From assembly GCA_026625185.1 (NCBI GenBank), contig CP113000.1:1245622-1277621 (forward strand): a DNA stretch of 32,000 bases, written 5' to 3'. The notes under the pieces are model-generated. The model had not been told where the DNA came from, ran no database searches, and saw nothing but the letters and a program-made list of their open reading frames with translations. Below are positions 15,455 to 30,474 of this stretch, piece after piece (the first letter of the stretch is position 1; each line of letters begins with the position of its first letter). Both the position numbers and the translations under genes were made by a program. The stretch is from Thermodesulfobacteriota bacterium. Lineage in GTDB: Bacteria > Desulfobacterota > WTBG01 > JAGOGO01.

Positions 15455-16672
15455 ATGCTTGATTGCACTATCACCGTGGAATCCGGCGTTACCTGGATTA
15501 ATTTAAAAGGTCGTATTGACAGTATGACCTCACCGGAGATACAGCGGCAGATTAATGACCTCATTTTAGGGGGAGAAAGGCACTTAGTGGCTAACCTTGA
15601 GGAGATCAACTATATCAGCAGCGCAGGTTTACGCGTTTTTCTGGGAGCGCAGAAACAGCTCAAAAAGGTGGGAGGGGAGATTATTTTTTATAAAGTCTCG
15701 AGTTCAATATTTGACGTGTTTAAACTCGGGGCTTTTGATCAGATATTCCGTTTCGCGTCAACCAGAGAAGAAATTACCGGCGCACTTCATGCCGATAAAA
15801 CCTCTTTTCCTATTCGCTCAAAAGAGGTTGAGAAAATAGTATTTAACTATCTTGAAAAAAAAGCTGATCCTGGTTTCCTGAAGGTGGTGGGGTCTCAGGA
15901 AAATCTTGCTTGGGCAAAGTATATTGAGAAAGATGTGGTTACTATCAAATCAGAAGAACTCCAGTTCGGAACCGGTCTGGCTACTCTGGGTGATTGCTAC
16001 GGGGAATACAAGAATTTATTCGGCGAAGCAATGGTCATCAACCGAAACTTCTTTTTTTATCCGGCAGTTAAACGTCCGGCAGTTGATTTCATGCTTGCTG
16101 CCAACCAAGAATCCAGTCTTGAATACCGGTTTCTGCACGGCTTTGGATTCACTGGGTCCTATAAGTACGTTGTTTTATTTGAGAGTACGGAGGGCTTGGT
16201 AGAGCTGGAACGCCTGGTGAATGCTTTTTTTTCGATTTCCCAGGCGAATCTTTTGGGTTTTGTGATTCTCGGGGAAAGCAAAGGTCTCTGGGGAATGCAT
16301 TTAAAAAATAGCCCTATTTTTGAGAATCAACCTAAAAACGGCAAAGAGATTTTTGACCCGATAAACTTTGCTGACTGGGTAAACTTTCCTGTGGAGGCGG
16401 GAGATATCAACCGGATTATTGCTGCAACCGGGATTGCGATCAAGGAAGTGAGCAGGGAGCGCGGTGAAGTACAAAGCCTTTTGTCCAAGGGAGCCTGTTT
16501 TCATGTTCATGGGGCAGTATTTTCTCAGGAGCCGCTCAGTAAGAAAATAGAGCAGTTTGAAAACGAGCTTACCCGGGTTCTGACCGAACTTGAGGTTTAT
16601 AAGGTGCAGCATATACTCGGCAAGACCAGATTCAGCAGCGGAATGGTGGGGCTCGTTGAGCTTAGTTCATGA
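15455..16672 (+). CDS. STAS-domain (anti-sigma-factor-antagonist-like) protein fused to an uncharacterised domain of about 290 aa
   Basis: Residues 1 to about 110 are SpoIIAA/RsbV-like (INLKGRIDS...LEEINYISSAGLRVFLGAQKQLKKVGGEIIFYKVSSSIFDVFKLGAFDQIF). I recognise no motif in the rest. A strong RBS AGGAGG lies 6 nt upstream. It is the first gene of the ABC operon. Confidence 0.8.
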   Translation: MLDCTITVESGVTWINLKGRIDSMTSPEIQRQINDLILGGERHLVANLEEINYISSAGLRVFLGAQKQLKKVGGEIIFYKVSSSIFDVFKLGAFDQIFRFASTREEITGALHADKTSFPIRSKEVEKIVFNYLEKKADPGFLKVVGSQENLAWAKYIEKDVVTIKSEELQFGTGLATLGDCYGEYKNLFGEAMVINRNFFFYPAVKRPAVDFMLAANQESSLEYRFLHGFGFTGSYKYVVLFESTEGLVELERLVNAFFSISQANLLGFVILGESKGLWGMHLKNSPIFENQPKNGKEIFDPINFADWVNFPVEAGDINRIIAATGIAIKEVSRERGEVQSLLSKGACFHVHGAVFSQEPLSKKIEQFENELTRVLTELEVYKVQHILGKTRFSSGMVGLVELSS

Positions 16673-16703: not shown

Positions 16704-19700
16704 ATGGAACTCTGGGTTGGTGCATTAAGTCTCGGTTTGTTATACGCCTTCATGACCATGGGGGTTTTCATCACCTTTCGCATTCATAATTTCCCTGACA
16801 TTACCGTGGACGGAAGCTTTACCTCAGGGGCGGCAATAATGGCGTTACTTATTGTCACCGGATTTAACCCATTTCTGGCCCTGGGGGCTGCCTTTATCAT
16901 CGGAGCAGTCGCGGGTTGCGCTACCGCTTTGATCAATACCCGTTTAAATGTCAATGGCCTCCTGGCTGGTATTTTGGTCATGACCGGTCTTTATTCTATT
17001 AACCTGCACATCATGGGCCGGTCAAATATACCTCTTCTCAACCAGACAACGGTATTTACTTATCTCTCTGGGCTAAATCCAGGACTACAGGGAGAGATCT
17101 GGACTGGTATCGTCCTCAGTTTGGTTATGGTCCTTTTCTGGCTTGTTGTTTCTTTGTTTTTTAAAACTGATTTTGGGATTGCCATGCGGATTACCGGTAA
17201 TAATCCCACCATGGCGGCGGCAAATGGTGTTAATGTCGGCAGAATGACTATCTTTGGGGTAGCTTTGGCAAACGGTCTGGTTGGTGTTTCCGGCGGCTTG
17301 GTTGCCCAATATCAGGGATTTGCCGACATTGGAATGGGAATTGGAACGGTAGTTATCGGGCTTGCGGCAGTAATCATCGGCGAGTCCATCTTGAGGTCCC
17401 ACTCCATGTACGCAAAAGTGTTAAGCGTGCTCATTGGATCGGTGATTTTCCGGCTAATGATTGCCATTGCGCTTTTTGTGGGCATGAACCCTATTGACCT
17501 TAAACTTCTCACCGCAGGTTTTGTCCTTATTACCCTTATTATTTCTAAAACTGTTGCGGGCCGGGAAAAGAGGAGGGGGGAACTTTTCGGAAAGGTAGCC
17601 GGTTTTTTTCAGGGTAAACGAGTTGCTTACGGTTTTACTGCCATCATCATTATTATTGCGGTTGCATGGTTTGGGTATAAAAATTTTTCCCAAAGATTAA
17701 TGACACCACAAAAAATTAATAAAATCAAGGTGGTGCAGCTTACTGATAATGGACTTTTAAATATAACCCGGGACAGTTTCGTTAAAGAAATGGAAAAAAT
17801 CGGTTATCAGGATGGGCAGAATTGCACCATTAGCCTGGAAAATGCTCATGGTGATCTGCCCACCGTCAACTCCATCATTGATAAATTTCTTCAGGAGAAG
17901 GCGGACATTATCGTCACCATTTCCACCGGATGTACCCAGGCAGCAATCAATAAGATCAAGGACCGGCCAATAGTTTTTGCTACGGTTGCCAATCCGTTTA
18001 TTATTGGTGCCGGAAAATCAGAAACTGACCATGTAGCTAACGTTACTGGTGTGTACGGCTCGGTTCCCATGGACAAAACTATGGAGGTGGTCAGAAAAAT
18101 CCTGCCGGGAAAGCTCGCCATTGGAGCCATCTGGGATTCAAGCCAGGCAAATTCAGTCTTCAATGCAGAAAATCTTAAAAAAGCAGCTCAAGCTTGTGAT
18201 GGGGTGAGTTTTGCGGGAACAACCATTACCAGCTCAGCGGAAGTATATGAGGGCGCCGTATCTTTGGTACAAAAGGGGATTGGCGCTTTTGTTTTGCCGC
18301 CCGACAACATTGTTTATTCAGCTTTTGAGTCGGTGATAAAAGCCGCCAGAACCAAAAACATCCCCGTCTTCACCAGTGATGTAGAAAGGCTTGCTGATGG
18401 CGCTCTTGGTGTGCTGGGATATGATTATGCTTTAAGCGGTATTCAGGCTGCCCATCTGGTTGACCGGGTGCTAAAAGGGGAAAAACCACGGGATATCCCT
18501 TTTGAGCGGTATAGAAAGCTTACTTTTGGGCTTAACCTGGAGGTGGCAAAAACAATTGGTATATCCATATCACCTGAAGTTATTGCTCAAGCTACCATAG
18601 TTCTCGGAGGGAGAGAGACCAAAAAGCTTAAACCTAAAATAGGCCTTGTTCAGTTTGCCTTTGAACCTAATGTGGAGCTCTGCAAGCAAGGAATTCTTAA
18701 AGCCCTGGCCGAAAATGATTACCGAGATAAGGATAACATCGAAATCATCTACAAAAATGCTCAGGCTGACTTCTCTCTGATTAATTCCATTATTCAGGAT
18801 TTCCTAAGAAGGAAGGTTGATATCATTGTCCCCCTTTCAACCCCGTGTGTGCAGTCGGCAGTCCAGTTTGCTGCCGGGAAAAAAGAAACTAAAGTTGTTT
18901 TTACCTACATATTTGATCCTTACCGGATAGGAGCGGCAAAAACTCCGACCGACCATGTTCCCACTATAACGGGCGTGGCCTGCTTTCCGCCGATAGAGGG
19001 GATGCTGAATTTAATAAAAGAGATTTTCCCGGACCGGAAAAAGGTGGGCATTGTCTGGAATAGCTCGGAGGCAAACTCGGAAGCAGTGCTCCTTAAGATA
19101 CGTACCCAGGCGGCTAAGACAGGTCTTGAGGTTATCGAGGCAACCGTGACCAGCCCGGCGGAGGTTCTGGAGGCAGCACGGTCTTTGGTGAATAAAAAGG
19201 CTCAGGTTTTTTTAAATGGCGGAGACAATACCCTTAATGTGAGCTTTGACAGTTTTGTAAAGGTTGCGGACGAGAACAAAATCCCCGTTTTTTCAGTAGA
19301 TTCAGAATTTATTGAAAAAGGTTCTTTTGCGGTTCTGGGGCCTGATTATTTTCAAACCGGTTATGAAGGAGGAAACTATTTGGCCAAGGTATTGGGTGGT
19401 GAAGATATCGCAAACCTCCCTATCGGTCAGACCAAAAAAACCCTTTTTATGATCAACTTGGATATTGCCCGCAAATATGGGTTTGAGGTAGATAATGCTA
19501 TCGTGAAAAGGGCGCAGAAAGTCATTGACAGCAGCGCTAAGGTTATTGCCGCAGGCCCGCCGGTGCGGAAAAAGAGACTGGCGCTTTTTCTTTTTAGTGA
19601 ATACATTTCAATGCGTGAAACTGCCCAAGGGGTTACGGAAGAGCTTGAGCGAAGCGGCATTTTGCGGCAGCATAATATAACTATGGACACAAAAAATTCT

Positions 19701-20462
19701 CAGAACGATTTTTATTTGGCCCAGTCAATTGCTCAGGATATTGTGCGGCAAAAATATGACTATATCATCACGCTTTCTACTCCTGCACTTCAGGTAATGG
19801 CAAATGCCAATAAAAAGATTCCCCATATCTTTGGCGCGGTGACTGATCCTTACCGCATGGGGGTGGCAAAAAGCAGCACTGACCACCTTCCGAACGTGAC
19901 CGGGGTGGCGACTCTTCAACCGGTGGAGACAACCATCCGGGTTATGCGGGAACTTTTTCCTCAGGCAAAAAAAGTAGGAATTATCTGGAACCCCGCGGAA
20001 GCCTGCTCCGAAGCCTGTACCTACAAAGTCCGGGACGCGGTTAAAAAATATAGCTTTGCTCTACAGGAAATAAATGTTGACAGCACCAGTGAGGTGCTTG
20101 ATGCGTTGAAGTCCCTCTTAAACCGGAGAATTGATCTGTTTCTGACCTCCGGTGACAATACGGTCATTATGGCGCTTGAGTCGGTTGCAAAATTGCTGAA
20201 GGAGCATAAAATTCCTTATTTTACCAACGTTCCCTCGGATGTTGACCGCGGTGCGTTTGTTTCCATCGGTGCAGACTATAATGAGGTGGGTAAGGAAACA
20301 GCCCGCATGGCAGAAAGGGTAATAAGCGGAGAAAACCCCCAGGGCATTCCCATTAAAAATTATGTTCCCGAAAAAATGGCAGTTAATCTCTCCCTGGCGG
20401 GAGAGTACGGGATCAAGATTCCGGAGCCATTGCTTAAAAAAGCCGCCTATATCAAGAGGTAG
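16704..20462 (+). CDS. ABC transporter permease (COG4120-type) fused through an extra TM helix to three tandem PF04392/COG2984-type substrate-binding domains
   Basis: The N-terminal 300 aa or so are polytopic (FPDITVDGSF, LAGILVMTGLYSINLHIMG). A linker TM follows (VAYGFTAIIIIIAVAWFGY). Then come three units of about 300 aa sharing DIIVxxST, DPxxxGxxKxxTDHxxNVTGV, KVGIIWNxxEANS and IPVF landmarks. Confidence 0.85.
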   Translation: MELWVGALSLGLLYAFMTMGVFITFRIHNFPDITVDGSFTSGAAIMALLIVTGFNPFLALGAAFIIGAVAGCATALINTRLNVNGLLAGILVMTGLYSINLHIMGRSNIPLLNQTTVFTYLSGLNPGLQGEIWTGIVLSLVMVLFWLVVSLFFKTDFGIAMRITGNNPTMAAANGVNVGRMTIFGVALANGLVGVSGGLVAQYQGFADIGMGIGTVVIGLAAVIIGESILRSHSMYAKVLSVLIGSVIFRLMIAIALFVGMNPIDLKLLTAGFVLITLIISKTVAGREKRRGELFGKVAGFFQGKRVAYGFTAIIIIIAVAWFGYKNFSQRLMTPQKINKIKVVQLTDNGLLNITRDSFVKEMEKIGYQDGQNCTISLENAHGDLPTVNSIIDKFLQEKADIIVTISTGCTQAAINKIKDRPIVFATVANPFIIGAGKSETDHVANVTGVYGSVPMDKTMEVVRKILPGKLAIGAIWDSSQANSVFNAENLKKAAQACDGVSFAGTTITSSAEVYEGAVSLVQKGIGAFVLPPDNIVYSAFESVIKAARTKNIPVFTSDVERLADGALGVLGYDYALSGIQAAHLVDRVLKGEKPRDIPFERYRKLTFGLNLEVAKTIGISISPEVIAQATIVLGGRETKKLKPKIGLVQFAFEPNVELCKQGILKALAENDYRDKDNIEIIYKNAQADFSLINSIIQDFLRRKVDIIVPLSTPCVQSAVQFAAGKKETKVVFTYIFDPYRIGAAKTPTDHVPTITGVACFPPIEGMLNLIKEIFPDRKKVGIVWNSSEANSEAVLLKIRTQAAKTGLEVIEATVTSPAEVLEAARSLVNKKAQVFLNGGDNTLNVSFDSFVKVADENKIPVFSVDSEFIEKGSFAVLGPDYFQTGYEGGNYLAKVLGGEDIANLPIGQTKKTLFMINLDIARKYGFEVDNAIVKRAQKVIDSSAKVIAAGPPVRKKRLALFLFSEYISMRETAQGVTEELERSGILRQHNITMDTKNSQNDFYLAQSIAQDIVRQKYDYIITLSTPALQVMANANKKIPHIFGAVTDPYRMGVAKSSTDHLPNVTGVATLQPVETTIRVMRELFPQAKKVGIIWNPAEACSEACTYKVRDAVKKYSFALQEINVDSTSEVLDALKSLLNRRIDLFLTSGDNTVIMALESVAKLLKEHKIPYFTNVPSDVDRGAFVSIGADYNEVGKETARMAERVISGENPQGIPIKNYVPEKMAVNLSLAGEYGIKIPEPLLKKAAYIKR

Positions 20463-20464: not shown

Positions 20465-21277
20465 ATGATAAAAATCATTGATGTTCACAAAAGGTTTAAC
20501 CCCGGCACTGCCAATGAGGTTTATGCTCTCCGGGGCATCAACCTGCATATCGAAGAAGGTGAGTTTGTTACCGTTATCGGAACCAATGGCTCAGGCAAAT
20601 CTACCCTGCTCAATGCACTCGCCGGCGCCTTCCTGCCTGATTCCGGCTCCATAGATATTGACGGTTTGGAGGTAACGGATAAAAAAGATTTTCAAAGGGC
20701 AAAGTATATTGCCCGGGTTTTTCAAAATCCTTTTATGGGAACTGCTCCCGAGATGACCATTGCGGAAAATCTTCACATGGCCTCCTTGAGATGCAAAAGA
20801 AGCTTTCCAAAAAGAGGATTAAACGCTGAACGTCTTAAGACTTACAGAGCGGAAGTTGCTCAGCTGGAGATGCAGCTGGAGGACCGTCTTCGTAATTTTA
20901 TCGGCACCCTCTCCGGCGGTCAGCGGCAGGCATTGACCCTGCTAATGGCGGTGATCACTGAGCCCAAGGTGCTCCTTCTGGATGAGCACACGGCAGCTTT
21001 GGATCCTAAGTCGGCAGCCCAGGTTATAAAGTTGACCAAAAAATTTATTGAAGGGACTAAGCTTACCACCCTTATGGTTACCCACAGCATGCAGCAAGCT
21101 CTCGACCTCGGTACCCGCACCATTATGATGAACAAAGGACAGATTATTGACGATATCCCTCAGAAAGAAAAACAGCGGATTACAGTTAATGACCTGTTGG
21201 ACAAATTCGCCGAGCTTCGCAAAGCCGAACAGTTAACCGACGAAATGATAGAGGAGTTAAGGCAAGGATATGTTTAA
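20465..21277 (+). CDS. ABC transporter ATP-binding protein (COG1101-type partner of the COG4120 permease)
   Basis: Walker A GTNGSGKST, signature LSGGQRQ, Walker B LLLDEHTAALD, H-loop VTHSM. The start is 2 nt after the permease stop. Confidence 0.92.
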   Translation: MIKIIDVHKRFNPGTANEVYALRGINLHIEEGEFVTVIGTNGSGKSTLLNALAGAFLPDSGSIDIDGLEVTDKKDFQRAKYIARVFQNPFMGTAPEMTIAENLHMASLRCKRSFPKRGLNAERLKTYRAEVAQLEMQLEDRLRNFIGTLSGGQRQALTLLMAVITEPKVLLLDEHTAALDPKSAAQVIKLTKKFIEGTKLTTLMVTHSMQQALDLGTRTIMMNKGQIIDDIPQKEKQRITVNDLLDKFAELRKAEQLTDEMIEELRQGYV

Positions 21278-21295: not shown

Positions 21296-21706
21296 CTATT
21301 TTTTTATTTTCATGCAGAGTTTCAGAATATTCTTTCCTTCCTCGTGCCGGTAATCCAATTCATCCACCATCTTTCGGATCAGAAAAATCCCTAAGCCTCC
21401 GATTCTCCGCTCAAATAAATCACCGGATAAATTTGGACTATTTTCAGTTAAAGGATTGAAAGGATGGCCCCAGTCCTGGATGACAAAACAAAGTTTATCC
21501 TTATTCAGCCGGGTGCACTTTACTTCCACATCACCTTCTTGCGTGGGATAAGCATAATTAATAATATTGGTGAGAACCTCTTCCAGAACCAATTCTATCC
21601 TTGAAACCATTTCCTGGGTTATATGCCAGTCTTTTATTGTCTGAAGGACAAAAGAGCGAAAGGTTTCCAATGATTCCAATTTTGCCGGTAAACGTAAGTT
21701 ATCCAT
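21296..21706 (-). CDS. RsbW/SpoIIAB-like anti-sigma regulatory factor (HATPase_c serine kinase)
   Basis: 136 aa with N-box EEVLTNIINYAY, a DWGHPFNP segment and a GGLGIFLIRKMVDE G2-box. It is the last gene of the partner-switching operon. Confidence 0.85.
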   Translation of the reverse strand: MDNLRLPAKLESLETFRSFVLQTIKDWHITQEMVSRIELVLEEVLTNIINYAYPTQEGDVEVKCTRLNKDKLCFVIQDWGHPFNPLTENSPNLSGDLFERRIGGLGIFLIRKMVDELDYRHEEGKNILKLCMKIKK

Positions 21707-21752
21707 GCCTTAATCTTGAAGTCTAATTAAGCTGAGCTTTAAAAGTTAATAA

Positions 21753-23720
21753 TTAAGCATATTGAAAAAATCCTGGATAAGGAGAATCCTCTTTTATTCC
21801 TTTAAAGCGCAAAGCTAAAACCGTAATATCGTCCGCCTGGCTGACTTCTTTAGAAAAGCTTTTAACCGCATTAACCACATTATTTACGAGCTCTTCGGGA
21901 GAATTGTCGGGGTAGGTTCGGGTGGTCTCCAGTAGTCGTTGTTCGGAGTAGAGCTCTTTGTTTTCGTTTAGGGCTTCCGTTACTCCATCGGTATAAACCA
22001 GCAGCAAATCTCCTGAGCGAAGCTCAACTTTTTTCGTATCGTATTGGGATTCCTCAAAGACTCCCAGGAAGAATCCTTTCGGAAGTTCCAGCCATTCCGG
22101 TTCTTGACCGGCCCGAACAAGCAGCGGAGGATTATGGCCTGCATTGGAGTAAAGAAGTTCTCCGGATTTGAAATTCAAAATACCGCAAAAAACGGTGACG
22201 AACATATTTGATTCATTGTCTTGGCAGAGTTCCAAATTTACTCTTTTGAGGATGTCGGAAGGCTTAAGCTGAGGTTCAGCGGTTCCTTTCAGAAGAGTCT
22301 TTGTTACCGCCATAAAGAGAGCTGCCGGTATGCCTTTATCCGAGACATCACCCACAACAAAAAAAAGATGCTCTTCATCGAGGAGAAAGAAATCGTAAAG
22401 ATCACCGCCGATTTCTTTAGCGGGTTCAAGGGAAGCAAAAATTTCAAATTCAACCTTATCCGGAAACGGCGGAAAGTGCTTTGGAAGAAAACTCATCTGA
22501 ATGGTGCGGGCAATCTTGAGCTCGCTCTCAATCCGCTCCTTGGCTGCGGTGGTGGCGGCCAGGTTGGCAATGTATTCCTTAAGGGCAACTTTCATCTCCT
22601 TAAAAGATCGGGTTAGTTTTCCGATTTCATCATTTGCCCGCACCTCCGGTAGCTCAATATCCAGATTCCCCTTGACGATTTCCGAGGTTGATCGGGCAAG
22701 AGAACCGAGCGGCTTGGTAATAGTCCGGGAGAAGAAGGCAATGACGATACAGAGGAAGGTGAATCCAACCACGCCGATGAGAAGGACTTGTTTGCTTAAC
22801 CGGCTCACATCAGCAAATAGTTCTTCCTCCGGGAAGATCACTCCGAGGGACCAGCCGTTGGAAGGCAAGGGGGCATAATACATCCAGGATTTTTTTCCGG
22901 AGACAAAGTCTTGGAGAGGCACGAACCCCGGTTCGCCGGTGATCATTTTTCTCCCAACTTGGCGCAGGGTGGAGTCTTTTCTCGCTTCGGCAATACTGAA
23001 GATGCTTTCCTTCATGATCAATTGCTTTTCGGGGTGCGTGACCATGACCCCGTTTTGGGAGATCAAAAAAGCGTATCCGGTCTTATAGATTTTTACCGAA
23101 GATACAATATCCTTTAACCACATCAGGGAAATATCAGCAGTGACAACTCCCCGGAATTTATTTTTGCCGTCTATTTTTTTATAAAAGGGCACGGAATAAG
23201 TGGACATAATGATATTGCCGGCGCCTTCATCATAAAAGGGCTCGCTCCATACCGGGGAGTCAATTTCCTTGGGGATCTGAAACCAGTCGAGGTAAAAATA
23301 CCGGTAGGAGTCACTTCCCAAAAATGTTAAGATGATCTTTTCATTATTACGGTAATAATAAGGAGCAAAGTATAATAAAGTCGGATTAAAGGCGTACGGT
23401 TCAAAGGCAAAGGTTGAACCAAATATCTCCGGATTATTTGCAACCGCGCTTTGTACTAATTTCAAAAGATCTTGGCGTTGGTAGGGGTATTTTTCAATGA
23501 TGGAGGCTTGATTAAGCGGCACCTCTTCAACCGACCTGAGGACCGTCTCAATTTTATAAACGGTAGATAGGGTGAGGTTGCGGGCGTTTTCTTCAATGTT
23601 TTTTAGTAAAGTTTTTTTTGAATAATGGTAGTTATAAACGAAAGCCGCAACAAAGATGATGGTGGTGCTGGTTAAGATAAAGATAATGAGTTTAAAAGCG
23701 AGCCCTAAATTTTTAATCAT
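21753..23720 (-). CDS. membrane sensor phosphatase: TM, Cache-like periplasmic domain, TM, HAMP, PP2C (SpoIIE/RsbU family)
   Basis: Two TM helices flank about 280 aa containing YKTGYAFLISQNGVMVTHPE (Cache-like). HAMP segment is TKPLGSLARSTSEIVKGNLDIELP...IGKLTRSFKEM. PP2C motifs are ARTIQMSFLP, GGDLYDFF, VVGDVSDKGIPAALFMA, YTDGVTEA, DDITVLALRF. Confidence 0.88.
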   Translation of the reverse strand: MIKNLGLAFKLIIFILTSTTIIFVAAFVYNYHYSKKTLLKNIEENARNLTLSTVYKIETVLRSVEEVPLNQASIIEKYPYQRQDLLKLVQSAVANNPEIFGSTFAFEPYAFNPTLLYFAPYYYRNNEKIILTFLGSDSYRYFYLDWFQIPKEIDSPVWSEPFYDEGAGNIIMSTYSVPFYKKIDGKNKFRGVVTADISLMWLKDIVSSVKIYKTGYAFLISQNGVMVTHPEKQLIMKESIFSIAEARKDSTLRQVGRKMITGEPGFVPLQDFVSGKKSWMYYAPLPSNGWSLGVIFPEEELFADVSRLSKQVLLIGVVGFTFLCIVIAFFSRTITKPLGSLARSTSEIVKGNLDIELPEVRANDEIGKLTRSFKEMKVALKEYIANLAATTAAKERIESELKIARTIQMSFLPKHFPPFPDKVEFEIFASLEPAKEIGGDLYDFFLLDEEHLFFVVGDVSDKGIPAALFMAVTKTLLKGTAEPQLKPSDILKRVNLELCQDNESNMFVTVFCGILNFKSGELLYSNAGHNPPLLVRAGQEPEWLELPKGFFLGVFEESQYDTKKVELRSGDLLLVYTDGVTEALNENKELYSEQRLLETTRTYPDNSPEELVNNVVNAVKSFSKEVSQADDITVLALRFKGIKEDSPYPGFFQYA

Positions 23721-24696
23721 GGGATACGCAATCTATAAAAAAATCCGAGAAACTCGGGACAGCAGTGATTAAGCGATTTACCTTAAGCTCCTGAACAACG
23801 CGATTATAATCGCCGGCTTGAAGAGTTCCCAAAGGGACAGTATTACCGGACGGATTAATGATGTCTTTCATACGTTCCAGCATCCATTTCTGGTGAACCC
23901 GGTTCGTAGCGATATTGCCGTCCACTACATACTTCATAACAATATCGAGGGCCGGTTCGGGGTTATCGAAGGCGTACTCCCATCCTTCGAGGGATGCTTT
24001 CACAAAATCACGGCACAAGGCGGGATCATGGTCAAAGGTCTTTTTTAAACAGTAAATACCGTCTTCGGGAAAGTTTACGCTATATTCAGAAAGGAAAAAG
24101 GTCGTTAATTCAGTCGGATTTATACCGGAATTGATAATGGTATGGTACTCATTGTACCACATGGCGGACGCTACATCTACCCCGTTGCGTAAAAATAGGT
24201 TCAGGGTTGCGGACTGGGGAATAATGGTAACGTGAAGGTTGTGCTTTTTGAAAAATGCCTTGGGCTGGACCTGAAATTCACTTCCCCAGAGACCCACTTT
24301 CCTCCCGTTGATATCCCGGGGGGAGTATATGCCGCTTGACTTTTTCGCCACCAACATGAGGGATGATCGTTGGACAATTTGACCGATATTAACTATGGGG
24401 AGCCCCTGGGAGCGCTTTTGGATTCCGGTGGAGAGGAACATGGTTCCAAAATCCGCGCGTTTCTCCTTTAATAGCGCCGAAGGTGGGTAATCGGGGCCGC
24501 CACGTAAAATTTTTACCTCCAATCCGTGTTTCCGGTAAAATCCTTTCTCCTGGGCGACAAAGTAACCGGCAAACTGGGACTGAGGAACCCATTGGGGTAT
24601 AAAAGTCGTTTTTTTTAAACCCTTTTCGTTTGCCTGAGCCGCTATAGTTATCAATAAAAGCAAGGCAAAAAGAAAGAATATTTTAAATTTTAGCAC
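23713..24696 (-). CDS. periplasmic substrate-binding protein, NMT1/THI5-like (NitT/TauT-type SBP)
   Basis: Signal peptide MLKFKIFFLFALLLLITIAAQA and a QWVPQSQFAGYFVAQEKGFYRKHGLEVKI motif. Its stop overlaps the phosphatase start by 8 nt (ATGATTAA). Confidence 0.8.
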   Translation of the reverse strand: MLKFKIFFLFALLLLITIAAQANEKGLKKTTFIPQWVPQSQFAGYFVAQEKGFYRKHGLEVKILRGGPDYPPSALLKEKRADFGTMFLSTGIQKRSQGLPIVNIGQIVQRSSLMLVAKKSSGIYSPRDINGRKVGLWGSEFQVQPKAFFKKHNLHVTIIPQSATLNLFLRNGVDVASAMWYNEYHTIINSGINPTELTTFFLSEYSVNFPEDGIYCLKKTFDHDPALCRDFVKASLEGWEYAFDNPEPALDIVMKYVVDGNIATNRVHQKWMLERMKDIINPSGNTVPLGTLQAGDYNRVVQELKVNRLITAVPSFSDFFIDCVSHD

Positions 24697-24728
24697 CCAG
24701 CATCCTTCTGAAGCTTTTCAATTTTTTT

Positions 24729-25061
24729 TTAAATCTGTGACCGAGCAGATTCCACGGATTCAAAGATGGGGATAATAGAACGGAATCCGGAAATTTCGAA
24801 AACCTCCTTTACCATACCTTTAAGTCCGGCAATCAGAAGCTTTCCATCTTTTTCTTTAAGTTTTTTGGTTATCGTGAGGATGCTGCGAAGGCCGGAGCTG
24901 CTGATATAATCAAGCGCAGCAAAGTCAAGTATTAAAGCGTTATTTCCTTCAGCAATTAATGCGGCCATTTCTTTTTCAAACTCCGGTGAGGAAACAGCAT
25001 CCATCCTCCCTTTTAATGAAACCACTGCTGCCTCTTGTTCCCGTTTTTTTTCTATCTCCAT
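24729..25061 (-). CDS. STAS-domain anti-sigma-factor antagonist (RsbV/SpoIIAA-like)
   Basis: 110 aa: VSLKGRMDAVSSPEFEKEM...LDFAALDYISSSGLRSILTITKKLKEKDGKLLIAGLKGMVKEVFEISGF. The serine at the phospho-acceptor position is retained. Confidence 0.88.
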   Translation of the reverse strand: MEIEKKREQEAAVVSLKGRMDAVSSPEFEKEMAALIAEGNNALILDFAALDYISSSGLRSILTITKKLKEKDGKLLIAGLKGMVKEVFEISGFRSIIPIFESVESARSQI

Positions 25062-25160
25062 AATAGGCTTTCTAATTTAATGTGATTAGCGTTTTTTCGG
25101 AATTTATGCTGCTTTTTTATTTCTTGGTAACGATCCAAAAAATTCTTTTTTTGTCGATAT

Positions 25161-25189
25161 TTTTTTAACCTATTGGCGCGGGAAAGTCA
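25161..25189 (-). promoter_or_regulatory. candidate sigma70 promoter for the STAS-SBP-phosphatase-kinase operon
   Basis: On the minus strand: TTGACT (25189-25184), a 17-nt spacer, then TAAAAA (25166-25161), about 100 nt upstream of ATG 25061. Confidence 0.3.
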
Positions 25190-25199
25190 ATCCTATTGA

Positions 25200-25285
25200 T
25201 TTTCCTTATTAACCGAAACCCATAAGCGGAGTCCCTCCCAGGTCTTCTTTTCATTGGGTGTTTTTTCAAAAAGTCCTTTCTTCCC
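25200..25285 (+). repeat. intergenic repeat family, copy 1
   Basis: TTATTAAC (25205-25212), 12 nt, GCGGAGTCCCTCCCAGGTC (25225-25243), then TTTTTTCAAAAAGTCCT (to about 25276). It is collinear with copies 2 and 3. Confidence 0.6.
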
Positions 25286-25326
25286 TTAATGGTTATTCCT
25301 ATCATCCTTTCGTCTAATTTTAATTC

Positions 25327-25425
25327 CCCCTAATCACTCCATCACTAACCACTAATCCCTGCGCCTTCAGGGCGCACGCAATCCCTTCGGCCCTGCCAGG
25401 CCGGAGTGAGGAAGTGATAAAGGGG
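25327..25425. ncRNA. candidate structured RNA or element (GC-rich, three-way-junction-like); identity and strand unknown
   Basis: Outer stem ATCACTCCATCACT (25333-25346) pairs with AGTGAGGAAGTGAT (25405-25418) at 12 of 14 positions. It is flanked by CCCC/GGGG and encloses hairpins TGCGCC-TTCAG-GGCGCA (25360-25376) and CGGCC-CTGCCA-GGCCG (25388-25403). Confidence 0.25.
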
Positions 25426-25590
25426 AAAAGGGGTCAGAAGAAAAGTTTTACGAATTTTTCTTCCGCAGTTTTCCAATTATTGTATTAATCATCTTCAATA
25501 TCTCGTTGCTTACACCATTTCTTTCAGCAAATGTTTTCGATGAGATAAAATTTATATCTTTACATTTTCCCAGCCAATTTTGAACTTCAG

Positions 25591-26098
25591 GTGTTGATCG
25601 GTAGTTACTCACTTATAGAGTTTGATTTTGGCACAAAAACTATTGATGCCATAAGCCAATGGTTGCCAGGTTCGCCCCCGCTTTTTTTTGTTAATAAAAA
25701 TTCTCCTATGGATCGTTTACGATTTAGCGTTGACCATGAGTTAGGTCATATTGTAATGCATAAAGTTTGTGGGCTGGATATAAAAAAAAATGGGAAAACA
25801 AGCAGACGATTTCGCTTAAGAAATTCTTATGCCCGAAGACGCTATATCTCGTTTCTTAAATAATATTACCCTTCCGCAACTTGCTAATTTAAAATCATAT
25901 TGGAAAGTATTCATGGCAGCTCTTTTGCATCGTTCATATGATCTAAAAAAAATTACAACAAGGCAATATCAATACTTATGGATGCAAATGGGGAAAGCTG
26001 GCTATCGAACAAAGGAACCGCCTGAATTTGATATTCCCAAAGAAATACCTTCTTTATTAAAAGATCTAATTGAAACTTATCGCCAAAAATATGTTTGA
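25591..26098 (+). pseudogene. ImmA/IrrE-family zinc metallopeptidase (DUF955), N-terminally truncated, frameshifted, with an internal stop
   Basis: Contains RFSVDHELGHIVMH (the HExxH motif). The frame changes at an A9 run (25782-25790). The shifted frame reads MGKQADDFA-TAA(25817-25819)-EILMPEDAISRF, matching the family's ANxFAxxxLMP segment. The remainder continues as track ORF 25829-26098. Confidence 0.65.
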
Positions 26099-26146
26099 CA
26101 TGCTTGAGCGGCTCAAATGTATTATAATTTTGCTCGGATTCATTAG

Positions 26147-26230
26147 ACTTTGAGAATAACTCCGGCAATGACGGCGGAGGAGACGGATCATGTTTGGTCT
26201 TTGGAAGAAATGGTAGGTTTATTGGATTAG
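26147..26230 (+). mobile_element. IS transposase C-terminal tail remnant (about 27 codons)
   Basis: Translation TLRITPAMTAEETDHVWSLEEMVGLLD* matches the recurrent TPAMAAGxTDHVWSxEEL tail that I recall from a class of IS transposases (IS1/IS1595-like; family uncertain). A stop lies immediately upstream, so only the tail survives. It overlaps the pyrF stop by 4 nt. Confidence 0.45.
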
Positions 26231-26979
26231 GATAAAGCTTGTTCGATTTCTTTTGCTATTTTTTTAACAGCCTCGATGGGATCGGGGGCATTCTTGATTG
26301 GTCTGCCAACGACAATATAATCGGCCCCATCTTTTATAGCATCATAGGGGGTGGTTATTCTTTTTTGATCATCCGCATTTACCACACTCCATTTTGGACG
26401 GATCGCAGGAACAACGACAATAAAATCTTTTCCAAATTCTTGTTTTACCGCCTTCACTTCCTTGCCAGAACATACTACTCCTGAACATCCAGCTAATTTA
26501 GCTAATCTTGCCCTATGGAGAACGAGTTGAGTTGGGTCTTGTAAATCTTCTCTAATACCAATTTCTTTTAAATCTTCTTTTGATAAACTTGTTAAGACTG
26601 TTATTCCTAATATCTTTGTTCCATTTTTAACGCTATCGACAACAGCTTTTAACAATCCCTTTCCTTCTTCACAATGAACAGTTATAAATGTAGCATGGTG
26701 GGCATTGGCGGCTTTTTGTGCGCCACTAACTGTTTCGGGAATATCGTGAAACTTCATATCTAAAAAAATTTTTGTAGGAGTTTCTTCGGCAATAGCTCTT
26801 AGTATCTTGGGACCTTCTTTTACGAATAATTCTAAACCAACTTTAAATAACCCAATGTAATTCTTAAGAAGTCTTACATAATGAGTGGCTTCATCAAGAG
26901 TAGGTAGATCTAATGGAAATATTATATATTCGTGAGGTTTTTTAGAAGAACCACTTTTTAAGTCCATTTTTTTGGCCAT
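26227..26979 (-). CDS. pyrF: orotidine 5'-phosphate decarboxylase
   Basis: IFPLDLP, FKVGLELF, FLDMKFHDIPETV, ITVLTS, VVGRPI motifs. It is visibly more AT-rich, with more AGA/TTA codons, than the core genes in this window. Confidence 0.9.
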   Translation of the reverse strand: MAKKMDLKSGSSKKPHEYIIFPLDLPTLDEATHYVRLLKNYIGLFKVGLELFVKEGPKILRAIAEETPTKIFLDMKFHDIPETVSGAQKAANAHHATFITVHCEEGKGLLKAVVDSVKNGTKILGITVLTSLSKEDLKEIGIREDLQDPTQLVLHRARLAKLAGCSGVVCSGKEVKAVKQEFGKDFIVVVPAIRPKWSVVNADDQKRITTPYDAIKDGADYIVVGRPIKNAPDPIEAVKKIAKEIEQALS

Positions 26980-27227
26980 GAAATGGTTTGTTAATATATT
27001 AATTCCCCAATAATTAATTTGTCAAAAAAATCTTCTATATAGATAAGAAAAAATTAAAATATCTATCTATAGTATTTTAAAAGAATTTTTAATCTTAAAA
27101 TATCATTTATTATAAATTTACCATTTTTAAACATAAAAAAGAAACGATTACCTAACAAAAAGTTCATACCAGTTCAGGTTTTTCTCAGAAAAAACACAAT
27201 TTATTTTTAAAAATGAGTCACTACCAA

Positions 27228-27340
27228 TTTTCTTTAATAACCATATCCACCTAAGCGGAGTCCCCCTCAGGTCGGAAAATTCTCCCAAGCAATCACTTGG
27301 AAAAAAATTCTTATTAAGAACCAAAAAGTCCTATCTTGGT
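27228..27340 (+). repeat. intergenic repeat family, copy 2
   Basis: TTAATAAC (27234-27241), 13 nt, GCGGAGTCCCCCTCAGGTCGG (27255-27275), TTCTCCCAA, AAAAAAATTCTT, CAAAAAGTCCTATCTT (to about 27337). Confidence 0.6.
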
Positions 27341-27383
27341 CTTATAAATTGAAGGCTAATTTTTTAACCTCTCTCCTCCCAAA

Positions 27384-27420
27384 AAGGCCAGGTTTTCATT
27401 GCGTGGCCTTTGTTTTTTTG
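27384..27420. terminator. bidirectional rho-independent terminator-like hairpin
   Basis: AAGGCCA (27384-27390) / TGGCCTT (27404-27410), a perfect 7-bp stem with a 13-nt loop. An A-run lies upstream (CCCAAAAA) and TTTGTTTTTTT downstream. Confidence 0.5.
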
Positions 27421-27488
27421 GGGTGAGAGAAAGCAAAACTTATTTTAAAAATACTTTACTATTACCTTTTCGTGGTTATTATTAAAAA

Positions 27489-27556
27489 ATGGCCCTGATC
27501 AGGCTCCTTTTCCTTCATCTCTCCTCCTTTTGAAGGGCCTGATCGTTTAGGGCCAT
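27489..27556. repeat. long imperfect inverted repeat (68-nt extended hairpin)
   Basis: ATGGCCCTGATCAGGC (27489-27504) pairs with GCCTGATC-gttt-AGGGCCAT (27537-27556). An inner stem is CCTTCA (27512-27517) / TGAAGG (27531-27536). Confidence 0.55.
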
Positions 27557-27909
27557 TCGCTTTTCTTAGCATAAATATGAGGACAAAACAAGTCATTATT
27601 ATATCCTCCTAAATTTCCAACTGCCTAAATTTCTTTATTTCTCTGCTCATTTTTAAGTACGGTTAATTCAAAAATAACATTCTCCACCAAGGGAGAGGAA
27701 CGATAAAAAAGTGTTATTAATTAAAAATTTACCTTTTTTCTAAGGCTTTTGTTCACTGGTAGTTTTTTTAAAGCTTATTTTTTCGTAAACCATTTTAGCG
27801 CTCCTGCGTCTTATATTTGAGAAAAGCAAAATAAATTAACCCATAAGAGATGCGTATCTGTACCTATTAAAAACTAATCCTCTAATAATTAAAAAAGGGT
27901 GTGATCATC

Positions 27910-28299
27910 ATGAGAAAAATATTAATTATTTTAATAGCCTTAAGCCTGGCAATACCCCTTTTAACCGCCACTCCCGCAAAGGCCGGTCATTGGAGTTTTG
28001 GCTTTTACTGGCCCGGATTCACAGTAGGGATAGGTGTTCCCCCGCCATATTATTATCCTGCACCACCTCCTCCAGGCTATTATTATCCTCCCGCCTACTA
28101 TTATGGGGAATACTGTAGGCCTGGGTATGGGTATTATGGTGGTTGCCGTCCCAGGGAATATTATGGCGGACCCAGGTATGGGAACAATGGCGACTACCAT
28201 AGGGAATATAACGGGGGACCCCGTGGGGAATATTATGGTAGAAACAATGGCAATGAGGATAATGGTGGGGAAAACTATGGTGGTGGATATCGGAGATAG
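27910..28299 (+). CDS. secreted Gly/Tyr/Pro-rich low-complexity protein (hypothetical)
   Basis: Start moved to ATG 27910, giving a classical signal peptide MRKILIILIALSLAIPLLTATPAKA. The mature part is PPPYYYPAPPPPGYYYPPAYYYGEYCRPGYGYYGGCRPREYYGGPRYG...GGGYRR. A terminator follows. Confidence 0.6.
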   Translation: MRKILIILIALSLAIPLLTATPAKAGHWSFGFYWPGFTVGIGVPPPYYYPAPPPPGYYYPPAYYYGEYCRPGYGYYGGCRPREYYGGPRYGNNGDYHREYNGGPRGEYYGRNNGNEDNGGENYGGGYRR

Positions 28300-28341: not shown

Positions 28342-28385
28342 CGGCTAACGGTAATTGGAATACCTGGTTAGCCGTTTATTTTTAA
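28342..28385 (+). terminator. rho-independent terminator after the Gly/Tyr-rich protein gene
   Basis: CGGCTAAC (28342-28349) / GTTAGCCG (28367-28374), a perfect 8-bp stem followed by TTTATTTTTAATTTTTT. Confidence 0.5.
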
Positions 28386-28589: not shown

Positions 28590-29810
28590 TCAACGCATAT
28601 TCCCGGTGTGACCGAGCGAATATCGGCCCGGAAGAGGCCAGTAGGCTAATCCGTGGGGATGGTCACCTACCGAGATGCGTGCGATCAGTTTGCCCGAGTT
28701 GGTATCAAAGCAATAGACCTCATTGTCATAACGACCACCCAGCCAGAGCTGGCTTCCCTCAATATTCAGGTTACCCATGTCCGGACTTCCGCCCCCCGGC
28801 ACCAGCCATTGTGCGATGACTTTCCGGGTGGCAAAGTCGATGACCGCAATACTGCCCTGCCCATGCCGCCCTGCATTCAAATGGCTCCATCCCCGGTTGC
28901 TCACGTAAAGCTTCTTGCCGTCCCGGCTGGGCAAAAGTCCATGCGCGCCTTTCCCGGTGGGAATGAAACCCACTATTTTGAAACGATCCCCGTCAATCAA
29001 ATGGACGCCATTGGCCATGAGGTCGGCAATGTAGAAGGTGGTCCCGTCTGCTGACAGCCGGACATCCTGCGGCATGCTGTTGATACCTAACTCGAGCGAG
29101 TCGGTCATCTGATACTTTACCATGTCGATCTTGATCAATTTTCCGGCAAACTCACAGGAGGCAACAGCATAGCGACCGTCGATGGAAAAATCCAGGTGAT
29201 TGACGCCCCGGCAGGCCACGGGAACAGAAAATTTGAGAGCCATGGTCTCAGGATCCCGAAAGTCAAGCTTATGCCTGGCTTCGGCTACGACGATAGCGTA
29301 TTTGCCGTCCGGGGTAAAATACAAGTTGTACGGGTCATCAACATGCACGTTTGGCCCGGGCTTCCCGGTTAAGGGATCTATGGGTGTAAGACTATTGCCC
29401 TCGTTATTCAATACCCATAACCGTTTTTTGTCCCAGGAGGGTATAATGTGCTGGGGGCCTTTGCCCGTGGGATAGTGGTCAATCACCTTAAAAGTCTTTG
29501 GATCGATAACGGATACGGTGCCATCCCACTCGTTCGGCACATACACCCGGTGAGGAATGTTATTCAAGGCAGGCTCTAATTTATCCGCGGCAGCCTCGGA
29601 ATAAATATTGGTGGGGTCAATCACGGGAGGCATACCCGGTATGGTATGTATTTCCTGTTGGCCTCGGTTGTGGTTGCCTTGGCTTGAGAGATGGGAGGAA
29701 TTGGCCCGGTCCGGAGGTTTACTAGTTTTGGGTGAGGATGCACTATAGCTATAAAAAAACAGGGTAGCTATAATAATGGCAAAGAGAATTAATAATCTTT
29801 GTATAGTCAT
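28590..29810 (-). CDS. YVTN-family beta-propeller repeat protein with N-terminal membrane anchor or signal sequence
   Basis: Repeated units of about 40 aa of the type VYVPNEWDGTVSVIDPKTFKVI, LWVLNNEGNSLTPIDPLTGK, FYIADLMANGVHLIDGDRFKIVGFIPTGKGAHGL, LYVSNRGW...GSIAVIDFATRKVI. N-terminal hydrophobic helix LLILFAIIIATLFF. RBS GGAGAAGG. Confidence 0.8.
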   Translation of the reverse strand: MTIQRLLILFAIIIATLFFYSYSASSPKTSKPPDRANSSHLSSQGNHNRGQQEIHTIPGMPPVIDPTNIYSEAAADKLEPALNNIPHRVYVPNEWDGTVSVIDPKTFKVIDHYPTGKGPQHIIPSWDKKRLWVLNNEGNSLTPIDPLTGKPGPNVHVDDPYNLYFTPDGKYAIVVAEARHKLDFRDPETMALKFSVPVACRGVNHLDFSIDGRYAVASCEFAGKLIKIDMVKYQMTDSLELGINSMPQDVRLSADGTTFYIADLMANGVHLIDGDRFKIVGFIPTGKGAHGLLPSRDGKKLYVSNRGWSHLNAGRHGQGSIAVIDFATRKVIAQWLVPGGGSPDMGNLNIEGSQLWLGGRYDNEVYCFDTNSGKLIARISVGDHPHGLAYWPLPGRYSLGHTGNMR

Positions 29811-29994: not shown

Positions 29995-30474
29995 TTAGGG
30001 CTTGATTTCAATTGGTATCCCGTCGTTGACCAGAGACCAGATTTCTTCAATTTCCCGGTTGGTTACTGCGATACACCCCTGAGTCCAGTTCATCTTCCGA
30101 TAAAAAAAACCGAGAAAGCCCAGCCCGTTTCTAATGCCGTGGAGCATGATGTCCCCGCCGGGGTTCACTCCCGCCTGGTTTGCCCGCTGAATATCTGCCT
30201 GGGAGGGGTAGGAAATGTGAAGTGAGCGATGATAGCAACTTTGATAATTGCGCCCGTCGATAACGTAAAGACCTTCCGGTGTTTTCCCGTCGTCTTTCTG
30301 TAACTTATGCCCCTCAGGGTATGGACCAAGCGCAACCTGATAGGTACGTATAATATTACCTTCTGAAAGCAGAAAAAGCTTCCGCTTGGCTTTTTCAACT
30401 ACAACAAGGTCAATCTGCCTGGCGGGTGGTGATTGCTTCCTTGAATTTAAAACCCTTTTCTTAGCCAGCATCAC
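29995..30474 (-). CDS. L,D-transpeptidase-fold protein (YkuD domain), YafK-like
   Basis: VVVEKAKRKLFLL...YQVALG...GHKLQKDDGKTPEGLYVI...ISYPSQAD...GGDIMLHG...NWTQGCIAVTN, with the catalytic His/Cys context of the YkuD fold. Confidence 0.85.
   Translation of the reverse strand: MMLAKKRVLNSRKQSPPARQIDLVVVEKAKRKLFLLSEGNIIRTYQVALGPYPEGHKLQKDDGKTPEGLYVIDGRNYQSCYHRSLHISYPSQADIQRANQAGVNPGGDIMLHGIRNGLGFLGFFYRKMNWTQGCIAVTNREIEEIWSLVNDGIPIEIKP

Follow-up and report, generated by a model that had tools for sequence, protein, structure and literature searches.

A lineage-restricted family of Gly/Tyr-rich proteins with a predicted Sec leader and its possible place in the envelope of a Thermodesulfobacteriota bacterium

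INTRODUCTION

The nearest known look-alikes of the protein described here are the PXPV-type small exported proteins (PF12778, "PXPV repeat"), an uncharacterized group of about 100 to 150 amino acids (aa) with a Sec signal, a segment built around Pro-Gly (x-PG-x, e.g., DVxWSVGIxxPGVxVGV), Pro/Tyr repeats of the (A)PPPVYY type, and an aromatic and basic low-complexity tail. We analyzed a gene for a protein of the same plan in a 32,000-nucleotide stretch of the chromosome of a Thermodesulfobacteriota bacterium (assembly GCA_026625185.1, contig CP113000.1, positions 1,245,622 to 1,277,621), which is called the window below. The gene lies at window positions 27910-28299 (+), starts with ATG, and encodes 129 aa plus a stop; its product, here the target, had been singled out in an earlier note as a secreted low-complexity protein. 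The target is not a member of the PXPV group. Neither it nor its close family matched PF12778 even at an E value of ≤10, the target has PPPYYY and PPAYYY rather than PxPV, and its tail is rich in Gly and Tyr, whereas PF12778 tails are rich in His, Arg, Trp, and Asp. Among 143 distant profile matches, none of which has an NCBIfam name, 16 hit PF12778, and the weaker matches combine a signal peptide, DVxWSVGIxxPGVxVGV, (A)PPPVYY repeats, and a His/Arg/Trp/Asp tail. Comparison of mature-only alignments of the family and the PXPV class with hhalign returned 11 columns of the Pro/Tyr motif (probability, 87%). Homology to the PXPV class is thus not demonstrated, since it was lost once signal peptides were removed; the likeness is architectural or compositional. 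Our search of the literature turned up no work on the PXPV repeat of bacteria or on periplasmic proteins rich in Tyr and Gly.

Other envelope proteins resemble parts of the target. Certain peptidoglycan-binding lipoproteins of the Pal/OmpA family share with it the module YYYPxxYYYGGYYRPW(Y/H)GYYGGYYGRY (z = 6.6 to 8.5 against composition-matched shuffles), and their genes adjoin those of target paralogs in at least five loci; the target differs in lacking a lipobox and the OmpA domain (PF00691, no match in Pfam) and is predicted to be a free protein processed by signal peptidase I (SPase I). Glycine-zipper outer membrane lipoproteins (SlyB/Pcp, YfgH; PF13488/PF13441) are small envelope proteins with a hydrophobic, GxxxG-rich segment, and an OmpA fusion of this kind neighbors one paralog. 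The corresponding target segment is, in contrast, a short aromatic stretch broken by Pro-Gly, the target is no lipoprotein, and a Pfam search with it gave no match to PF13488, PF13441, or PF13436. Recent preprints link glycine-zipper outer membrane proteins to outer membrane stabilization (10.64898/2025.12.22.696046). In the BA14K family (PF07886), one weak match (P0041; E = 5e-3) begins with a signal peptide, which is followed by a hydrophobic, Gly-rich stretch and by PPPAYYYPPPYYYGPP ahead of the BA14K domain; the target is without the Cys-containing C-terminal BA14K domain, and the two are alike in the low-complexity part only.

More distant analogies can be drawn. The Mycoplasma Vlp lipoproteins are a multigene family with a conserved 5' end and variable repeats, and the family described here may be compared with them in its conserved 5' end and signal peptide and its variable, repetitive mature regions, but its members are no lipoproteins and it belongs to a free-living anaerobe rather than a host-associated pathogen. 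Insect cuticular GYR/YLP and FUS-like proteins are structural or phase separating. The target would resemble such eukaryotic Gly/Tyr(/Arg)-rich proteins in its spaced aromatics, Gly spacers, and Arg residues, although there is no homology and both kingdom and compartment differ. Functional amyloids of the curli CsgA/Fap kind were considered and rejected, with no family match in the target and no csg or fap genes in the window.

Here, we report that the target is encoded by a real gene, belongs to an uncharacterized, lineage-restricted family outside any curated family, and has a sequence module in common with Pal-like lipoproteins. We propose, at a rough probability of 0.45, that it is a periplasmic, disordered, aromatic-rich envelope protein that forms a non-covalent network with itself and with a Tyr/Gly (YG)-tailed Pal-like lipoprotein where the outer membrane and peptidoglycan meet.

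RESULTS

Purifying selection on the target reading frame

Codon alignments with four homologous loci gave ratios of nonsynonymous to synonymous substitution rates (dN/dS) of 0.15 to 0.35 in the target frame, for the N-terminal block and the tail alike (tail, 0.19 to 0.27). Across these loci, substitutions were most frequent at the third codon position and least frequent at the second, all length differences were multiples of three, and the C-terminal GGY(R/Q)R was retained. A Shine-Dalgarno-like AGGGTG lies 8 nucleotides (nt) before the ATG, at which the homolog alignments also begin; an alternative in-frame start, GTG, is located at 27901. Overlapping open reading frames (ORFs) of 79 to 97 aa exist in alternative frames on both strands. 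Those in the +2 and antisense frames lack start context and a signal peptide, their substitution pattern is wrong for coding, and they are by-products of TAT/GGN/CCN-rich DNA. Among the outcomes that the earlier note had named as speaking against it were a frame that homologous loci do not conserve and an opposite-strand ORF that is the conserved one; we looked for both and found neither. The target is a real gene under purifying selection.

A Sec-type leader and an aromatic, Gly-rich mature part

The protein divides into four parts:

27910..27984, + strand: signal peptide MRKILIILIALSLAIPLLTATPAKA, 25 aa, Sec-type, with SPase I cleavage predicted after AKA
27985..28038, + strand: aromatic/Gly segment GHWSFGFYW-PG-FTVGIGV, 18 residues, (near-)invariant in type-A homologs
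28039..28104, + strand: Pro/Tyr segment PPPYYYPAPPPPGYYYPPAYYY, kept in homologs as PPxYYYPAPPxYYYPPxYYY
28105..28299, + strand: tail GEYCRPGYGYYGG...GGGYRR plus stop, rich in Gly/Tyr/Arg/Asn/Glu and predicted to be disordered

By inspection, the leader consists of MRK, a 15-residue hydrophobic core (ILIILIALSLAIPLL), and TATPAKA, after which the mature part would begin with Gly; the residues at positions -3 and -1 are small, and AlphaFold2 modeled residues 2 to 19 as a confident helix (predicted local distance difference test [pLDDT], 81 to 92). This agrees with the classical Sec signal peptide ending in AKA that had been noticed before. The plan of n, h, and c regions with an A-x-A end is kept in all relatives in the alignments. 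The target leader contains no twin-Arg motif, and no lipobox Cys is present near the cleavage site (TPAKA before GHW), so that it does not qualify as a bacterial lipoprotein. Cleavage after AKA is predicted from the sequence.

The mature target would comprise 104 aa (11.9 kDa; isoelectric point [pI], 7.9; grand average of hydropathy [GRAVY], -1.35; charge near neutral). It is composed of 24.0% G, 22.1% Y, 14.4% P, 8.7% R, 7.7% N, and 5.8% E, and the 83% contributed by these six residues bears out the previous description of about 105 residues made nearly entirely of them. Its 28 aromatic residues (27%) have a mean spacing of 3.7 residues. For the stop-to-stop segment that contains the target, the summed fraction of Y, G, and P was 0.49, against 0.29 for the next highest of the 96 window segments of at least 80 aa. 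Every motif listed in the earlier note was located (PPPYYYPAPPPPGYYYPPAYYYGEY, CRPG, CRPR, EYYGGPRYG, and EYNGGPRGEYYG), but two of the patterns are not family features: the two CRP units are found in the target, whereas CRP/Cys units are absent from every homolog in the alignments, and the repeat motifs of the tail, also present, are degenerate at the DNA level and not conserved. The target contains two His and two Cys, both Cys being non-conserved. Its tryptic peptides include EYYGGPR, YGNNGDYHR, EYNGGPR, GEYYGR, and NNGNEDNGGENYGGGYR.

AlphaFold2 with the family alignment gave a mean pLDDT of 55 for the target, confident in the signal helix only, and of 45 for a type-C paralog (see below); the mature target is thus predicted to be intrinsically disordered. 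In the aromatic/Gly segment, aromatic and small residues alternate on both sides of Pro-Gly, and a hairpin with a two-residue turn would place W/F/F/W and F/V/I/V on one face; the model contains a low-confidence beta-bridge between W34 and F37. We propose that this segment may act as an amphipathic beta-hairpin or a glycine-zipper-like anchor. A transmembrane helix was rejected for it, the segment being too polar and too short (Hessa-scale sum, +10.7). The Pro/Tyr segment has the highest pLDDT outside the signal peptide (about 70 for residues 51 to 60) and is likely to be a polyproline-II-like spacer; an 18-nt tandem repeat of 2.1 copies spans 28068-28104 within it. Over most of residues 65 to 129, the tail has a pLDDT of <50. 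The C-terminal ending, G-(Y/H)-R-R or GR, is conserved in the family.

An un-named family, probably of one lineage

Searches with the target returned no matches in Pfam, at an E value of ≤0.01 or of ≤10, and none in NCBIfam at ≤1; with the family profile, the PDB yielded no relative, the sole return being a spurious nanobody (E = 0.32). The earlier statement that no family could be recognized therefore stands. In a word-indexed protein search, three JGI contigs proved to encode the identical protein, and one homolog cluster was recovered (P0002, 138 aa, E = 6e-24); here and below, P numbers denote proteins and L numbers loci. More copies came from the members of clusters and from a scan of metagenomes (P0005, P0006, L008, L009, and L010), and a profile of seven sequences then matched 38 proteins at an E value of ≤0.01, all un-named, 64 to 156 aa long, and without Pfam domains except for the weak BA14K protein P0041. 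An exhaustive HMMER search of 1.84 billion representative proteins gave 15 proteins at an E value of ≤1e-10 and 424 at ≤1e-3; the count of 424 is inflated by the signal peptide and composition, because PXPV-class homology vanished once signal peptides were removed. Scanning of GTDB species-representative genomes with family peptide patterns gave 26 pattern matches, of which 0 were confirmed, and a second genome scan, via the neighboring YncE-like propeller, yielded no genome closely related to that of the window, the propeller being about 50 to 62% identical across many phyla.

A near-identical signal peptide, MKKTVIFIVVLSLTITLLTATPA(K/R)A, is common to the close family. The family plan, which the target follows, is M(K/R)K...LLTATPA(K/R)A, a His/Trp/Phe-Gly segment, PPxYYYPAPP, a G/Y/R tail, and a C-terminal R. 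Three types can be distinguished by the segment after the leader: type A, which includes the target, has (G/H)HWSFGFYWPGFTVGxG; type B has HWGFFWPGFAAGVGAGVILNPFFYP; and type C has (E/D)(D/G)FFWPLWPLYAVGVGTAAILxGTAAIVGSVF. All three continue with a PPxYYYPAPP-like Pro/Tyr stretch and a Gly/Tyr/Arg(/His) tail, in most cases with R or RR at its end. In the homologs, the tails consist of nearly perfect tandem repeats that keep the frame (24 nt, 2.6 to 3.3 copies; 27 nt, 6.6 copies), and a pair of alleles from the same 90%-identity cluster is distinguished by a single 10-aa unit. The target tail is without such an array, and Tandem Repeats Finder detected just the 18-nt repeat in the PPxYYY part. 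In three members, P0017 (L091 10001-10369), P0024, and P0035, the tail switches to an alternative frame (...MAATPGAIVVNTMAVDIMV...); the penicillin-binding protein 1A (PBP1A) neighbor in L091 is also split in two, and together these look like indel errors, probably of assembly, rather than pseudogenes.

The tetranucleotide profiles of the family contigs correlated with that of the window at r values of 0.69 to 0.97 (0.92 to 0.97 for contigs of >8 kb and 0.69 to 0.89 for shorter ones). These contigs probably come from one lineage, because unrelated loci gave far lower values (-0.27 to 0.45). Several derive from samples labeled BDM and ORM2, labels that probably refer to a methanogenic culture that degrades benzene, the OR consortium, and to its Desulfobacterota strains ORM2a/b ("Ca. 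Anaerobenzenivorax"; PMC13101534).

A module shared with Pal-like lipoproteins

The Pal-like lipoprotein encoded next to paralogs has an OmpA domain (E of about 1e-22), an apparent FSGC lipobox (by inspection), and a C-terminal tail that reads ...YPWGYYDxWWGYPYWWGGLGFSYYYYPxSYYYGGYYRPWYGYYGGYYGRYHGG..., with the YG core ...YYYPRSYYYGGYYRPWYGYYGGYYGRY.... In Smith-Waterman alignments of this tail with the family, none of 500 composition-preserving shuffles reached the observed score, either for the L010 member (z = 8.5) or for the window protein against the L004 tail (z = 6.6). On the window side, the aligned stretch is YYYPPAYYYGEYCRPGYGYYGG, and it is the start of the target tail (YYYGEYCRPGYGYYGG) that aligns with the L004 OmpA tail; the core common to the target and the lipoprotein tail is YYYPxxYYYG.Y.RP.YGYYGG. 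Because the scores exceed those of all 500 shuffles, it is residue order, and not composition alone, that the target and the OmpA tail share.

Peptidoglycan and OmpA genes beside family members

The following arrangements were found, where OmpA-YG denotes the gene of the YG-tailed Pal-like lipoprotein:

L004, 2239-4828: member, OmpA-YG, second member
L010, 790-2330: member, then OmpA-YG
L008 and L095 (240-1499 in L095): OmpA-YG, then member
L096: OmpA-YG, then member (probable); a partial upstream ORF (2-211) looks like an out-of-frame OmpA-type tail
L091: PBP1A (divergent), member, and a Gly-zipper OmpA lipoprotein downstream
L092: divergent M15/DUF882 peptidase and LdtD-like L,D-transpeptidase, then member
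Window: member converging on a YncE-like propeller, with a YkuD protein and an SLT lytic transglycosylase beyond it

Paralogs thus recur beside peptidoglycan and OmpA genes, a contextual pattern suggestive of a link between the family and the peptidoglycan or envelope. The proximity to cell wall remodeling genes had been remarked on for the window in the earlier note; the link gains strength from the paralog loci and from the fusion of the YG module to a Pal-like lipoprotein, and not from the target's own locus.

Three of these loci call for separate remarks. The second member in L004 runs from an ATG at about 4298 to 4828 and is annotated at the source in the wrong frame (4410-4838). The window YkuD-domain protein (29995-30474, - strand, 159 aa) seems by inspection to be without a signal peptide and scored best, far below cutoffs, against models of the DpaA/YafK amidase and the ElsL L,D-carboxypeptidase; it may not be a classical periplasmic L,D-transpeptidase. 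The window propeller (28590-29810, - strand) is YncE-like and seven-bladed with a signal-anchor-like N terminus, and it is about 50 to 62% identical to proteins from metagenome-assembled genomes of Acidimicrobiia, Gemmatimonadota, Rokubacteria/Methylomirabilota, and Burkholderiales, with none closer found, which suggests a widely exchanged gene.

A conserved 5' module and a terminator

Three noncoding features flank the gene:

27785..27810, + strand: upstream motif GTAAAY-N2-WTTTAG-N3-T-N2-TGCGTC, 26 nt, a candidate operator or promoter element
27884..27901, + strand: AATAAT (-10-like box, 27884-27889; TATAAT in paralogs), A-run, and AGGGTG
28342..28383, + strand: intrinsic terminator, stem CGGCTAACGGTA / TACC-tg-GTTAGCCG, then TTTATTTTT

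The upstream motif occurs once in the window, with 0 occurrences expected from 100 shuffles. It was found exactly, and once each, in 13 of 97 loci, always upstream of a family member and with several paralog types represented; in the five loci measured, it lies 100 to 148 nt before the ATG. L009, L095, and L097 contain imperfect copies only. Exact copies include the following:

L004, 2114-2139
L008, 536-561
L010, 660-685
L091, 9868-9893
L092, 7869-7894
L093, 388-413
L094, 1715-1740

A sigma-54 promoter was rejected by eye as an explanation of the motif, the spacing being wrong and the window copy lacking TGG. The stretch with the -10-like box, A-run, and Shine-Dalgarno-like site is conserved across paralog types in upstream alignments and would act as a promoter; a promoter scan of the window did not flag the AATAAT box.

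The conservation extends into the coding region. The DNA of the signal peptide (27910-27984, with equivalents of 75 to 81 nt in L004, L008-L010, L091-L095, and L097) is 72 to 80% identical between the window and all other paralog types and 76 to 92% identical in the other pairs tested. Third codon positions are included in this conservation, with ACC CTT TTA ACn GCC ACT CCC GCA AAG GCT near-invariant. Over the next 120 nt, identity is 53 to 61% between the window and other types, 52 to 63% between different types overall, and 75 to 79% between the window and its own type, where shuffles of an upstream segment give a baseline of about 50%. Gene conversion of the 5' end, or a joint constraint on regulation and export, is a plausible cause. 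An RNA element was rejected: Rfam gave no match in the 5' region of the window, and the consensus fold of this region reaches only -1.5 kcal/mol, with a possible 4-bp pairing of the Shine-Dalgarno site and an anti-Shine-Dalgarno stretch.

The terminator that had been assigned to the gene was recovered as a hairpin with arms at 28342-28353 and 28361-28374 (12 bp, bulged) and a U-run, TTTATTTTT, at 28375-28383; the 105-nt stretch that contains it has a folding energy of -28.3 kcal/mol (z = -4.3), a stability that 0 of 200 shuffles matched. A simple terminator scan of the window did not flag it, and the 2-nt bulge of the 3' arm is the probable reason. With its own terminator and conserved upstream elements, the target would be a monocistronic unit.

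Other features of the window

The window is ordinary chromosome and carries gap, pgk, tpi, secG, a tRNA-Leu gene, pyrF, a type II dehydroquinate synthase gene, ABC systems, and a partner-switching module. Positions 25000-28000 are AT rich, with a GC fraction of 0.31 to 0.37 compared to 0.44 for the whole window, and contain long intergenic regions, a truncated IrrE/M78-peptidase-like ORF (25591-25863), and a gap of about 930 nt upstream of the target. A 44-aa ORF at 27462-27596 (-), MTCFVLIFMLRKANGPKRSGPSKGGEMKEKEPDQGHFLIITTKR, has a perfect AGGAGG 7 nt before its ATG and is absent from the JGI annotation of this contig; either a small gene or a chance occurrence would explain it. At 16704-20462 (+), a 1,252-aa ORF joins a branched-chain-type ABC permease domain (BPD_transp_2, residues 7 to 277) to three tandem substrate-binding domains (ABC_sub_bind, PF04392), an unusually large fusion that is followed by an ATPase gene (20465-21277). 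The partner-switching module (21296-25061, -) comprises an HATPase_c_2 anti-sigma-type kinase (21296-21706), a Cache/HAMP-SpoIIE phosphatase (21753-23720), an NMT1-like periplasmic binding protein (23713-24696), and a STAS protein (24729-25061); a second STAS-domain protein, of 405 aa, is encoded upstream, at 15455-16672 (+).

DISCUSSION

In the network that we propose, the target would be exported by the Sec pathway and released into the periplasm by SPase I. Its aromatic/Gly hairpin would then self-associate or dock on a membrane or wall surface, with the stiff Pro/Tyr spacer joining this hairpin to the disordered Gly/Tyr/Arg tail. Tyr and Arg residues in the tail could serve as "stickers" that make multivalent, non-covalent contacts with other copies of the protein, with the YG tail of the Pal-like lipoprotein, and possibly with glycan strands. 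The outcome would be a cohesive, aromatic-rich layer between the outer membrane and the peptidoglycan.

Several observations weigh against this proposal. The sequence of the target predicts its export across the inner membrane and no more, the hairpin is not confidently predicted (pLDDT of about 50), and hhalign aligned just 15 columns of the OmpA protein with the family. No target peptide was found in two supplements of the OR-consortium proteomics paper. In the window, no OmpA gene is adjacent to the target, and the peptidoglycan genes are on the other strand behind another gene; L093 and L094 (two-component system), L009, and L005/L097 (neighbors without Pfam hits) have no envelope genes beside the member. 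In all, at least 4 of about 7 independent contexts involve peptidoglycan or OmpA genes, a raw count that is suggestive.

The reading suggested in the earlier note, an extracellular matrix or adhesive protein, appeals to some of the same properties; the target would pass the outer membrane or travel in vesicles and glue syntrophic aggregates together through cohesive or coacervate-like contacts. Eukaryotic adhesive and structural Gly/Tyr proteins resemble the target in composition (27% aromatic, 24% Gly, a GRAVY of -1.35, near-neutral charge), one distant match weakly hit an insect cuticle family, and variation in repeat number, as seen among the homologs, is typical of surface proteins. Part of the family also comes from a syntrophic consortium (PMC13101534). 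However, no recognizable signal for outer membrane translocation, anchoring, or further sorting is present in the target, secretion-system genes occur in none of about 10 contexts, and the YG module also forms the tail of a Pal-like lipoprotein, a kind of protein that in known cases faces the periplasm. In a diderm, a Sec signal alone delivers a protein to the periplasm only. Oxidative cross-linking through Tyr (dityrosine) is also unlikely, because the source culture is strictly anaerobic (PMC9496526). On balance, we regard an extracellular location as unlikely.

Types B and C bring a second alternative into view, since in them the segment after the leader lengthens to 24 to 34 hydrophobic, Gly-rich residues (e.g., FFWPLWPLYAVGVGTAAILSGTAAIVGSVF); in this alternative, the family consists of small membrane-active proteins of the glycine-zipper type (SlyB/Pcp-like) that would insert this segment into the outer or inner membrane, with the YG tail as an accessory. 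Residues 37 to 54 of a type-C member were modeled as helical by AlphaFold2, with a borderline Hessa-scale sum of +2.1, and a Gly-zipper_YMGG OmpA lipoprotein adjoins the L091 member. The type-C helix, however, has a pLDDT of only about 45, no member has a glycine-zipper match in Pfam (at an E value of up to 10 for the three tested in this way), and the target segment, about 17 residues long with Pro-Gly at its center and PPP after it, has the Hessa sum of +10.7 given above. For the target, a role of this kind appears doubtful.

It is quite improbable that the target is a metal- or mineral-binding periplasmic protein that coordinates, e.g., Ni, Fe, Cu, or FeS through Tyr phenolate and His. Several paralogs and OmpA tails do end in His-rich runs (HGGHHGGYRGGYHGG, GGSHGGGH), distant look-alikes have HRGHGHGH or poly-Asp tails, and the culture medium contains FeS (PMC13101534), but the target itself has just two His and two non-conserved Cys, a metal transporter or chaperone recurs in no neighborhood, and the single RcnA-type NCBIfam match (E = 0.0023, 1 of the 143 proteins) is a low-complexity artifact.

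A conserved leader combined with variable cores, where conservation of the 5' region and leader reaches synonymous sites and the mature parts diverge, might also be expected of a secreted antimicrobial or signaling peptide precursor, either similar to Gly/Tyr-rich antimicrobial peptides, which exist as secreted peptides in animals, or a ribosomally synthesized and post-translationally modified peptide (RiPP). We consider this highly improbable. With its A-x-A site, the leader is a Sec signal of the classical kind and not a RiPP recognition leader, and about 10 contexts yielded no recurrent gene for a modifying enzyme, immunity, or a dedicated exporter beside members, so that a RiPP precursor was rejected; the only radical-SAM gene is in L092, 5 kb away within a glycosyltransferase cluster. 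The net charge of the target is near zero (pI, 7.9), and the whole mature part is under purifying selection. Finally, a chance ORF in low-complexity DNA, or a true gene on another frame or strand, is effectively refuted already: alternative frames of 79 to 97 aa do overlap the target on both strands and gene callers took the wrong frame in some relatives (L004 4410-4838 and apparently L096 2-211), but the dN/dS of 0.15 to 0.35, the start, Shine-Dalgarno-like site, and signal peptide confined to the target frame, and the in-frame indels and common C-terminal ending across loci leave this explanation next to no probability.

Returning to the proposed periplasmic network, two extensions of it can be considered. 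The family ends in ...GYRR, and one member, P0026, ends in ...GYRK; E. coli Lpp ends in ...YRK and is attached to peptidoglycan by L,D-transpeptidases. YkuD genes lie near two members (in the window and L092), and together these features are suggestive, by analogy, of a possible covalent tethering of family members to peptidoglycan. Going further, the family may be a diversifying, lineage-specific envelope cassette system, in which a common 5' module drives repeat-varying domains that co-assemble with the Pal-like lipoprotein, possibly with tethering by an L,D-transpeptidase, into a tunable Tyr/Arg "gel" (a periplasmic condensate or cement without a described precedent); this is a long shot. 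That an aromatic layer in a benzene-fermenting syntroph partitions aromatic substrates or affects cell-cell contact is pure speculation.

Whatever its function, the family flags un-named and sometimes misframed genes in OR/ORM2 consortium metagenomes and in other samples, and the upstream motif provides a handle for finding its regulator. For a free-living anaerobe, a gene family that pairs a conserved 5' cassette with mature parts that vary has an unusual architecture. If the proposed network is correct, a disordered, aromatic-rich protein would serve as structural material inside the bacterial periplasm, together with a Pal-like anchor that carries the same module, and the family would represent a new class of outer membrane-to-wall linkers or fillers beyond Lpp, Pal, and OmpA.

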